Shown here: positions 16,189 through 21,007 of the stretch, in pieces
Layout: every line of letters starts with the position of its first letter
How positions within the stretch are numbered: position 1 is the first letter of the stretch
Assembly (NCBI GenBank): GCA_964016885.1
Contig: OZ024762.1
Span: 4,092,001 to 4,156,000, forward strand
DNA length: 64,000 bases
DNA from: Eledone cirrhosa
Lineage: Eukaryota
Direction of reading: 5' to 3'
Translations under genes and position numbers: made by a program
Notes under the pieces: model-generated
The model's database searches: none
What the model was told of the DNA's origin: nothing
Seen by the model: the letters and a program-made list of their open reading frames with translations, nothing else

Positions 16189-16260
16189 ATATATAATTTT
16201 ATTAAAATAACAGGAGGTTGGATCCCTTTGAAGTTTTATTGTTGCAAAAAAAAAACTATA

Positions 16261-19200
16261 TATATTTCAATGGCATTGCTGTGTAAGATGCTGGCGACAT
16301 CAGGTTCTATATTTCAATGGTATTGCTGTGTAAGATCCTGGCCACATCAGGTTCTATATTTCAATGGCATTGCTGTGTAAGATCCTGGCGACATCAGGTT
16401 CTATATTTCAATGGCATTGCTGTGTAAGATCCTGGCGACATCCGGTTCTATATTTCAATGGCATTGCTGTGTAAGATCCTGGCGACATCAGGTTCTATAT
16501 TTCAATGGCATTGCTGTGTAAGATCCTGGCCACATCAGGTTCTATATTTCAATGGCATTGCTGTGTAAGATCCTGGCCACATCAGGTTCTATATTTCAAT
16601 GGCATTGCTGTGTAAGATCCTGGCGACATCAGGTTCTATATTTCAATGGCATTGCTGTGTAAGATGCTGGCCACATCAGGTTCTATATTTCAATGGCATT
16701 GCTGTGTAAGATCCTGGCCACATCAGGTTCTATATTTCAATGGTATTGCTGTGTAAGATCCTGGCCACATCAGGTTCTATATTTCAATGGTATTGCTGTG
16801 TAAGATCCTGGCCACATCAGGTTCTATATTTCAATGGCATTGCTGTGTAAGATCCTGGCCACATCAGGTTCTATATTTCAATGGTATTGCTGTGTAAGAT
16901 GCTGGCCACATCAGGTTCTATATTTCAATGGTATTGCTGTGTAAGATCCTGGCCACATCAGGTTCTATATTTCAATGGTATTGCTGTGTAAGATCCTGGC
17001 CACATCATCAGGTTCTATATTTCAATGGCATTGCTGTGTAAGATCCTGGCCACATCAGGTTCTATATTTCAATGGCATTGCTGTGTAAGATCCTGGCCAC
17101 ATCAGGTTCTATATTTCAATGGCATTGCTGTGTAAGATCCTGGCCACATCAGGTTCTATATTTCAATGGCATTGCTGTGTAAGATCCTGTCCACATCAGG
17201 TTCTATATTTCAATGGCATTGCTGTGTAAGATCCTGGCCACATCAGGTTCTATATTTCAATGGCATTGCTGTGTAAGATCCTGGCCACATCAGGTTCTAT
17301 ATTTCAATGGCATTGCTGTGTAAGATCCTGGCCACATCAGGTTCTATATTTCAATGGCATTGCTGTGTAAGATCCTGGCCACATCAGGTTCTATATTTCA
17401 ATGGTATTGCTGTGTAAGATCCTGGCCACATCAGGTTCTATATTTCAATGGCATTGCTGTGTAAGATCCTGGCCACATCAGGTTCTATATTTCAATGGCA
17501 TTGCTGTGTAAGATCCTGGCCACATCAGGTTCTATATTTCAATGGTATTGCTGTGTAAGATCCTGGCCACATCAGGTTCTATATTTCAATGGCATTGCTG
17601 TGTAAGATCCTGGCCACATCAGGTTCTATATTTCAATGGCATTGCTGTGTAAGATCCTGGCCACATCAGGTTCTATATTTCAATGGTATTGCTGTGTAAG
17701 ATCCTGGCCACATCAGGTTCTATATTTCAATGGTATTGCTGTGTAAGATCCTGTCCACATCAGGTTCTATATTTCAATGGTATTGCTGTGTAAGATCCTG
17801 GCCACATCAGGTTCTATATTTCAATGGTATTGCTGTGTAAGATCCTGGCCACATCAGGTTCTATATTTCAATGGCATTGCTGTGTAAGATCCTGGCCACA
17901 TCAGGTTCTATATTTCAATGGTATTGCTGTGTAAGATGCTGGCCACATCAGGTTCTATATTTCAATGGTATTGCTGTGTAAGATCCTGGCCACATCAGGT
18001 TCTATATTTCAATGGTATTGCTGTGTAAGATCCTGGCCACATCATCAGGTTCTATATTTCAATGGCATTGCTGTGTAAGATCCTGGCCACATCAGGTTCT
18101 ATATTTCAATGGCATTGCTGTGTAAGATCCTGTCCACATCAGGTTCTATATTTCAATGGCATTGCTGTGTAAGATCCTGGCCACATCAGGTTCTATATTT
18201 CAATGGTATTGCTGTGTAAGATCCTGGCCACATCAGGTTCTATATTTCAATGGCATTGCTGTGTAAGATCCTGGCCACATCAGGTTCTATATTTCAATGG
18301 CATTGCTGTGTAAGATCCTGGCCACATCAGGTTCTATATTTCAATGGCATTGCTGTGTAAGATGCTGGCCACATCAGGTTCTATATTTCAATGGCATTGC
18401 TGTGTAAGATCCTGGCCACATCATCAGGTTCTATATTTCAATGGCATTGCTGTGTAAGATCCTGGCCACATCAGGTTCTATATTTCAATGGCATTGCTGT
18501 GTAAGATGCTGGCCACATCAGGTTCTATATTTCAATGGCATTGCTGTGTAAGATCCTGGCCACATCATCAGGTTCTATATTTCAATGGCATTGCTGTGTA
18601 AGATGCTGGCCACATCAGGTTCTATATTTCAATGGCATTGCTGTGTAAGATCCTGGCCACATCATCAGGTTCTATATTTCAATGGCATTGCTGTGTAAGA
18701 TGCTGGCCACATCAGGTTCTATATTTCAATGGCATTGCTGTGTAAGATCCTGTCCACATCAGGTTCTATATTTCAATGGCATTGCTGTGTAAGATGCTGG
18801 CCACATCAGGTTCTATATTTCAATGGCATTGCTGTGTAAGATGCTGGCCACATCAGGTTCTATATTTCAATGGCATTGCTGTGTAAGATCCTGTCCACAT
18901 CAGGTTCTATATTTCAATGGCATTGCTGTGTAAGATCCTGGCCACATCAGGTTCTATATTTCAATGGCATTGCTGTGTAAGATCCTGTCCACATCAGGTT
19001 CTATATTTCAATGGCATTGCTGTGTAAGATCCTGGCCACATCAGGTTCTATATTTCAATGGCATTGCTGTGTAAGATCCTGGCCACATCAGGTTCTATAT
19101 TTCAATGGCATTGCTGTGTAAGATCCTGTCCACATCAGGTTCTATATTTCAATGGTATTGCTGTGTAAGATCCTGGCCACATCAGGTTCTATATTTCAAT

Positions 19201-20708
19201 GGCATTGCTGTGTAAGATCCTGGCCACATCAGGTTCTATATTTCAATGGCATTGCTGTGTAAGATGCTGGCCACATCAGGTTCTATATTTCAATGGCATT
19301 GCTGTGTAAGATCCTGTCCACATCAGGTTCTATATTTCAATGGCATTGCTGTGTAAGATCCTGGCCACATCAGGTTCTATATTTCAATGGCATTGCTGTG
19401 TAAGATCCTGTCCACATCAGGTTCTATATTTCAATGGCATTGCTGTGTAAGATGCTGGCCACATCAGGTTCTATATTTCAATGGCATTGCTGTGTAAGAT
19501 CCTGTCCACATCAGGTTCTATATTTCAATGGCATTGCTGTGTAAGATGCTGGCCACATCAGGTTCTATATTTCAATGGCATTGCTGTGTAAGATCCTGGC
19601 CACATCAGGTTCTATATTTCAATGGCATTGCTGTGTAAGATCCTGGCCACATCATCAGGTTCTATATTTCAATGGCATTGCTGTGTAAGATGCTGGCCAC
19701 ATCAGGTTCTATATTTCAATGGCATTGCTGTGTAAGATCCTGGCCACATCAGGTTCTATATTTCAATGGCATTGCTGTGTAAGATGCTGGCCACATCAGG
19801 TTCTATATTTCAATGGCATTGCTGTGTAAGATGCTGGCCACATCAGGTTCTATATTTCAATGGCATTGCTGTGTAAGATCCTGGCCACATCATCAGGTTC
19901 TATATTTCAATGGCATTGCTGTGTAAGATGCTGGCCACATCAGGTTCTATATTTCAATGGCATTGCTGTGTAAGATGCTGGCCACATCAGGTTCTATATT
20001 TCAATGGCATTGCTGTGTAAGATCCTGTCCACATCAGGTTCTATATTTCAATGGCATTGCTGTGTAAGATCCTGGCCACATCAGGTTCTATATTTCAATG
20101 GCATTGCTGTGTAAGATCCTGGCCACATCAGGTTCTATATTTCAATGGTATTGCTGTGTAAGATCCTGGCCACATCAGGTTCTATATTTCAATGGTATTG
20201 CTGTGTAAGATCCTGGCCACATCAGGTTCTATATTTCAATGGCATTGTTGTGTAAGATCCTGGCCACATCAGGTTCTATATTTCAATGGCATTGCTGTGT
20301 AAGATCCTGGCCACATCATCAAGTTCTATATTTCAATGGCATTGCTGTGTAAGATCCTGGCCACATCAGGTTCTATATTTCAATGGTATTGCTGTGTAAG
20401 ATCCTGGCCACATCATCAAGTTCTATATTTCAATGGCATTGCTGTGTAAGATCCTGGCCACATCAGGTTCTATATTTCAATGGTATTGCTGTGTAAGATC
20501 CTGGCCACATCAGGTTCTATATTTCAATGGCATTGCTGTGTAAGATCCTGGCCACATCAGGTTCTATATTTCAATGGCATTGCTGTGTAAGATCCTGGCC
20601 ACATCAGGTTCTATATTTCAATGGCATTGCTGTGTAAGATCCTGGCCACATCAGGTTCTATATTTCAATGGCATTGTTGTATAAGATCCTGGTGACATCA
20701 TCAGGTTC
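16261..20708 (-). repeat. 47-bp satellite, 94 units, built from a hammerhead-ribozyme core inside a Penelope-like terminal element (16195-20740)
   Basis: Minus unit GAAC-CTGATG(ATG)-TGGCCAGGATCTTACACAGCAATGCCATT-GAAA-TATA; 4448 bp = 94x47 + 10x3; flanks align with the single-copy element at 24125-24290. Confidence 0.9.
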
Positions 20709-21007
20709 TGGATTGCATAGTTAGATATTTAGTTAATCAATAAAGTGAATTATGGCAAACACAGACTTTATATATATATTCATTGAAATTTATATATATA
20801 TATATGTGTGTGTGTGTGCATATATATATAAAATCTGCTGCGCTGAGACTGGTGAGATCACAATATATATATATATATATACACTTAGGGTAAACATTGA
20901 TCCAATTCAATTCAAGCACTCAACGTACTTTTTCCACACAGGAGTGACGGAGTAAATATCGAATAAGGAAAAGCGAAGTAGTTTCAGATGTTCAAGTCCT
21001 TTAATAA

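Follow-up and report, generated by a model that had tools for sequence, protein, structure and literature searches.

This report concerns a tandem array of 94 units, each made from the core of a hammerhead ribozyme, on the minus strand of a 64,000-nucleotide stretch of the Eledone cirrhosa genome (assembly GCA_964016885.1, contig OZ024762.1, positions 4,092,001 to 4,156,000; here contig C23, 4.09–4.16 Mb, in a genome of 3.0 Gb). The whole stretch is referred to as the window, and positions are counted from its first letter. Very probably, the array is a minisatellite restricted to one locus, where it arose by expansion within a decayed copy of a dispersed type I hammerhead element. This element probably represents the terminal repeat of a Penelope-like element (PLE) of the non-autonomous kind, and the array is likely to be neutral DNA, not a polymer of active ribozymes.

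Anatomy of the array and its parent family

The array occupies positions 16261–20708, with unit starts running from 20708 down to 16307. Tandem Repeats Finder gives a period of 47, 93.9 copies and 96% matches, and our parse of the individual units agrees with it, which bears out the 94-unit minus-strand array of about 47 bp reported in a preliminary description of this DNA. Eighty-four units measure 47 bp and ten measure 50 bp. Among the latter, units 1, 18, 23, 44, 46, 49, 57 and 79 carry CTGATGA, and units 7 and 9 carry TTGATGA; the CUGANGA box is intact in 8 of the 94 units, leaving 86 without CTGATGA. The box of unit 1, in its ancestral state, lies at 20698–20704, and the other intact boxes start at 19900, 19662, 18672, 18575, 18431, 18052 and 17015 (±4 nt), all on the minus strand.

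An internal unit contains the 5′ strand of helix I, a mostly broken box, helix II, GAAA and a loop III that is 4 nt shorter, and it abuts the next unit at a junction with 1–2 nt of microhomology. Fourteen unit variants are interspersed among the first 93 units with no fixed period. Both flanks are unique and colinear with the dispersed family to which the copy belongs. On the 5′ side, a putative terminal-repeat remnant upstream of the hammerhead (20718–20766, as aligned to the majority of 41 dispersed copies) has (TA)n at its border; it is followed by the 5′ strand of helix I at 20705–20717, the last bases of which recur in every unit. At the other end, positions 16257–16268 hold the terminal GAAA, the full-length palindromic loop III and the sole family-type cleavage triplet, with cleavage predicted between 16257 and 16256. 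A single copy of the helix I 3′ strand follows (16243–16256), and beyond it the putative terminal-repeat remnant (16189–16242) is ended by (TA)n and another repeat. All these features lie on the minus strand. The two helix I strands are in the flanks, as the preliminary description had them, and its view that only the core and helix II were amplified inside one element is sound once part of loop III is added to the amplified piece.

The copy at 24125–24290 (plus strand), previously taken for a single-copy element, belongs to a dispersed family. The genome search returned 1549 first-look candidates, of which 40 were scored, with at least 45 matches, and an exact 19-nt family pattern had 98 matches compared to 1 in the control. 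When the 5′ flank of the array and its first units served as the query, another subfamily emerged, in which helix II is 16 nt shorter. Collapsed to its 5′ flank, unit 1 and 3′ end (20766 to 16189), the array is colinear over its full length with the majority sequence of 41 short-subfamily copies, at 152 matches and 14 mismatches, compared to 138 matches and 40 mismatches against 24125–24290. The flanks do align with the latter, as had been claimed, but the short subfamily is the closer relation. The copy at 24125–24290 is a member of the long-helix-II subfamily, a relative that is ruled out as parent or inverted partner of the array.

The box is full-length in all 41 dispersed short-subfamily copies and reads exactly CTGATGA in 33 of them; the query for these copies included unit 1, and the long subfamily, found with a different query, also has the box. 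The 50-bp unit is therefore ancestral, and the 84 shorter units carry a 3-nt deletion. The earlier count of eight CTGATGA and two TTGATGA units was correct, but the additional 3 bp in these units are not an insertion. Of the short-subfamily copies, 28 of 41 have both boxes, as do 23 of 31 in the long subfamily.

The array unit is confined to a single locus. Other genome matches stand at 77–83% and cover only the flank and unit 1 (40 candidates scored), and 69 of 69 matches to the exact junction pattern fall inside this array.

Hammerhead identity, folding and element of origin

The derivation of the unit from a real hammerhead, proposed earlier, is supported by covariation. In an alignment of 25 hand-picked motifs from both subfamilies and several sister families, the boxes and the cleavage-site region are invariant, 85% of cells are paired, and double-sided changes occur at 12 of 14 pairs. 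The covariation score of this alignment, for which the rows and the structure were chosen by the analyst and the sequences are related, was matched by none of 500 shuffles, and slid controls paired at 24–48%. With its two boxes, a UH cleavage site and helices I–III with compensatory changes, the parent dispersed family is a type I hammerhead. A model built without array sequence scored the terminal unit with its 3′ flank at 51.6 bits (E about 1e-9, a rough value), with a gap in the box, so the resemblance is not due to chance. The same model gave 16–33 bits for internal units and 37–75 bits for dispersed copies.

A strict motif descriptor found 5 motifs in the window compared to a mean of 0.01 across 100 shuffles. 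It passes none of the 41 short-subfamily copies and nothing in the array, so its failure on the array alone does not discriminate. Searches with the Rfam hammerhead models came back empty for the window, for the array region and for an intact copy, and they are uninformative because the canonical motifs at 55655 and 55773 were missed too.

Helix II of the short subfamily starts with U-U and G-U, and the same opening is found in a sister-family hammerhead at 21207–21299 (minus strand), which matches at 92% the copies beside a GIY-YIG reading frame in locus L243. Such an opening may be tolerated, or it may be the sign of a weak ribozyme. A palindromic loop III is common to all hammerhead families seen. 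These families (55773, 25552 and 24152 in the window; L224 and L226 elsewhere) also retain a mismatch (C-C or C-A) at position four of helix II while the flanking pairs differ, and the mismatch possibly marks a tertiary contact with helix I. In the array, this conserved mismatch is lost in 88 of 94 units. Two of the three most frequent substitutions hit a single helix II pair, which is disrupted in 31 of 94 units, and the CTGATGA box and an intact helix II base occur together in only 5 of 94. These counts show no sign of selection for the fold, and with 86 of the 94 units lacking CTGATGA the earlier picture of a polymer of ribozyme cores is not supported.

The terminal unit is one of the 84 with the 3-nt box deletion, and the one complete site expected at the 3′ end in the preliminary description is not there. 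By established hammerhead biochemistry, a box without these residues is inactive. Helix I can close only after the last unit, its 3′ strand being single. Internal units indeed lack a helix I partner, as had been noticed: in unit 79 the helix I strands pair at 2 of 5 positions. The array contains no collinear complete ribozyme because the terminal unit has the box deletion and the internal units are without helix I. Relative to the ensemble, adopting the hammerhead fold cost two canonical motifs of the window 2.1 and 2.5 kcal/mol, three long-subfamily copies 3.5–6.4 kcal/mol and six short-subfamily copies 4.3–11.8 kcal/mol, with one of 12 intact copies left out of the test. In the array, the cost is 13.9 kcal/mol with the collapsed element, 16.6 with the terminal unit and 18.4 when unit 79 uses its own site.

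The layout of the family suggests that the host copy is likely the terminal repeat of a non-autonomous PLE. The accessible parts of two published accounts describe PLEs with a hammerhead in the terminal repeat, partial head-to-tail tandems, inverted copies and TA-rich targets (PMC4209133; PMC8557442), and the host family exhibits all four hallmarks. Its 3′ end is fixed about 300 nt past the box and is followed by (TA)n, and a second, opposite-strand copy is present at 6 of 38 short-subfamily loci. The long-helix-II subfamily resides in an AT-rich unit of about 2.5 kb, arranged head-to-tail with an inverted upstream copy (L129–L153, L099–L128). A walk in the 5′ direction covered about 2.2 kb of AT-rich sequence, which starts directly after another terminal-repeat end in 3 of the 6 loci printed. 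No reverse transcriptase (RT) or GIY-YIG reading frame was detected in the 2.5-kb unit walked, and there was no GIY-YIG match on the element strand. This unit is likely a non-autonomous PLE, larger than typical retrozymes. A GIY-YIG match in L133, considered as the element's own frame, lies on the opposite strand, and apparent links to GIY-YIG elements at L074 and L246 are separate insertions into TA runs.

GIY-YIG frames are abundant in the genome, with 10,595 candidates, of which 150 were scored and all 150 exceeded the cut-off; RT was present in 2 of 4 frames scanned. Sister hammerheads lie near some RT/GIY-YIG frames, and no continuous link was found in the loci checked. Pfam searches covered 120 of the window's 137 candidate open frames; their sole result was a LINE-type RT at 40885–42288, and they gave no host gene for the array, although short exons would escape such a survey.

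The window regions 25341–25620 and 55561–55963 contain two inverted pairs of near-canonical hammerheads; for the 55773 type, matching stretches lie next to RT/GIY-YIG frames in L238 and L242. A compact hammerhead-like motif of a different family with a CTGAGGA box, at 36710–36775 (plus strand), passes the strict descriptor, and its surroundings match the GIY-YIG loci L230, L232 and L235. A further sister-family hammerhead at 31205–31278 (minus strand) scores 62 bits with a model that has it in the training set. The RT fragment at 40885–42288 lies on the minus strand and includes a PHD finger (Pfam RVT_1, PHD), and 3′ ends of LINE-like elements are also found at 22466–22800 and 7300–8061.

Growth of the array and competing explanations

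The units diverge by 1.4% from the array majority, compared to 8.4% between the host copy and its family, which makes them about 6 times younger than the host copy, and the outer helix II changes are common to all units. The array therefore probably grew after the host copy had decayed. Ancestral letters are retained at both array ends (unit 1 and units 87–94), and a cassette of seven units recurs 22 units apart (units 56–62 and 78–84), a length reached in 30 of 2000 shuffles. As far as can be judged from the sequence, these patterns point to a late expansion at the DNA level without selection.

These results lead us to propose the following scenario. A copy, probably of Penelope-like origin, inserted in TA-rich DNA and decayed by about 8%, acquiring four outer-helix-II changes. 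A 50-bp duplication would then have joined the TA-containing loop III to the bases upstream of the box; the junction is visible as 1–2 nt of microhomology, and slippage is the presumed mechanism. A slip at TGA in one unit would have deleted three nucleotides of the box, and the observed variants are consistent with slippage and unequal exchange that made the array grow and mixed its units. If transcribed, the internal units would not be expected to cleave, because the 3′ strand of helix I follows only the last unit and the last unit is without an intact box.

With complex minisatellites defined by a period of 25–120 and at least 5 copies, the window has 8; leaving out the present array, 2 of the remaining 7 have matches to dispersed repeats among the 1.1 Mb of loci compared. 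In forty evenly spaced 10-kb stretches of the genome we counted 7 such arrays, the copy number of one being at least 102, while the hammerhead hits numbered 10 and were spread over 7 stretches. Extrapolation from these 400 kb yields about 52,000 arrays and about 75,000 hammerhead motifs genome-wide, and about 4–26 arrays spanning both boxes are expected by chance if 3–20 permissive start positions are assumed. We found two core arrays in sister families, one of 60 bp × 7.9 at L226 1282–1753 (G000:C23:483963–484434) and one of 81 bp × 9.2 in L216 (G000:C3:149.688 Mb), and a further case with a two-unit core repeat. A sister-family junction pattern had 18 matches, 13 in tandem cores and 5 not, compared to 8 for the reversed control. 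The recurrence of core arrays fits chance, within a rough estimate, and the array at its single locus does not represent a satellite family. The 60-bp sister array has both boxes intact in every unit, with helix I complete only in the last, and it is a better candidate for a cleavage test than the 94-unit array.

The other young minisatellites of the window, seven with units of 31–48 bp, include 5410–5764, 9312–9925, 31838–32432, 37656–38577, 44172–44688 and 59759–61265, and a 33-bp one keeps an open frame. The density of minisatellites in the window (8 per 64 kb) is about 7 times that of the genome sample (7 per 400 kb). One array of the sample, at L255 1109–10000 (G000:C1:430 Mb), has 87-bp units in at least 102 copies.

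Several observations weigh against a neutral minisatellite in a decayed PLE copy. The ten longer-box units are spread along the array with no clustering (P = 0.35), and a C-to-G change fixed in 88 units produces an extra helix II pair. With 94 copies the array is the longest complex minisatellite in the window, where the others have 7–22. No contiguous reading frame was linked to the short subfamily in the loci examined, and the Penelope origin is read from layout. The base-rate estimate is rough: it is derived from 7 arrays and from 10 hits that are clumped, 4 of them falling in a single stretch, and the number of start positions is assumed. Finally, when the unit 79 box is combined with the terminal site in a long-range fold, all 5 helix I pairs and 5 of the 6 in helix II can form, at a cost of 8.3 kcal/mol, which falls within the 4.3–11.8 kcal/mol of the dispersed short-subfamily copies.

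The low cost of pairing the unit 79 box with the terminal GAAA, comparable to that of dispersed copies, favors the idea of a split hammerhead, in which the transcript cuts once at the terminal site using the CUGAUGA of one of the eight intact-box units, with a loop II of 0.7–4.4 kb. The terminal loop III also has the family length and palindrome. We consider such cleavage unlikely, since the fold is predicted to have an occupancy of about 1e-6, 86 decoy units that lack CTGATGA would compete through the same strands, and helix III still needs a dimer partner. Even for a single minimal PLE hammerhead, the accessible text of PMC4209133 reports no in vitro cleavage, and only low cleavage for dimers.

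Another possibility is that the repeats arose at insertion, when a Penelope-type RT recopied the last ~50 nt before the cut, in a telomerase-like manner or from a small circle. In its favor, the units meet at the cleavage triplet, the sister arrays have their junctions no more than a few bases away, and PLE RTs are related to telomerase according to the portion of PMC4209133 consulted. However, the junction patterns used forced junctions near the cleavage site, and the TA run of loop III gives microhomology anyway. The age difference of about 6-fold between units and host copy, the presence of sequence 3′ of the cleavage site, the lack of a closer source copy among the 40 candidates scored, and the lack of cleavage at the unit 5′ end to form a circle make this origin very unlikely. 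One may speculate more broadly that PLE hammerhead cleavage sites are birthplaces of minisatellites, where RT recopies the last ~50 nt, and that the present transcript is a natural split hammerhead that may use any of eight boxes, with a loop II of up to 4.4 kb and 86 decoys that tune it. This broader notion seems to us distinctly unlikely. An array length inflated by assembly error is hardly credible, given 14 variants interspersed among the first 93 units and unique, family-colinear flanks.

Relation to known minisatellites and retrozymes

The accessible part of the survey by Ahmed and Liang (2012; PMC3389668) attributes 23% of human minisatellites to transposable elements and finds 5,747 of 5,932 clusters at a single locus. 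As in those minisatellites, an internal piece of one repeat copy has grown in place at one locus, and the units are closest to each other. The array has what defines a transposable element-derived minisatellite, namely a unit of 10–100 bp that is an internal piece of a repeat, flanked by the rest of the copy, at one locus. It differs from them in that the expanded piece is a ribozyme core, in 94 copies.

The parent family resembles the type I hammerheads of PLE pseudo-long terminal repeats (pseudo-LTRs): it has both boxes, its helix II is long and its loop III small and palindromic, truncated copies are scattered, some copies form opposite-strand pairs, and the insertion sites are rich in TA (accessible parts of Cervera and de la Pena 2014, PMC4209133, and Craig et al. 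2021, PMC8557442). In those elements, as far as these parts describe them, the whole motif occurs once per terminal repeat, whereas in the array the core is multiplied and helix I is single.

The array also shares with non-LTR retrozymes and with the ribozyme satellites of newts, schistosomes and crickets, all related to PLEs, a tandem organization with hammerhead sequence in every unit (PMC7229834; preprint 10.64898/2026.07.22.740005; PMC6765202; each in its accessible part). In principle, the array could belong to the non-LTR retrozymes or ribozyme satellites, its monomer being unusually short and its transcript processed to RNA of unit length, and the accessible part of the preprint mentions retrozyme arrays of up to 180–300 units. 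Retrozymes, however, are described in these excerpts as units of about 300 nt, each with a complete ribozyme, at many loci and with monomeric or circular RNA. The array has neither dispersal nor a complete hammerhead in any unit (the strict descriptor scores zero in it), let alone two consecutive complete motifs, and its monomer of 47 nt compares with the ~300 nt given in the portion of PMC7229834 consulted. A permuted reading across units does not help, as the internal helix I strands pair at 2 of 5 positions. A retrozyme is thus extremely unlikely. No core-only hammerhead array is described in the literature searched, which was mostly judged by title or start of abstract and lay outside subscription journals and supplements.

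The array is most likely a neutral, transposon-derived single-locus minisatellite, one of many local minisatellite expansions, and not a retrozyme. It would offer a natural construct for probing how long a loop II hammerheads tolerate, and recopying by RT, if true, would link the Penelope RT to a telomerase-like birth of repeats. If the array is ordinary, it shows clearly, in one example, how neutral tandem DNA can be made from a ribozyme motif. It also counsels caution with pipelines in which a motif together with tandem repeats is enough to call a retrozyme: in genomes rich in hammerheads, tandem CUGANGA and GAAA do not make a retrozyme unless helix I is present in every unit.

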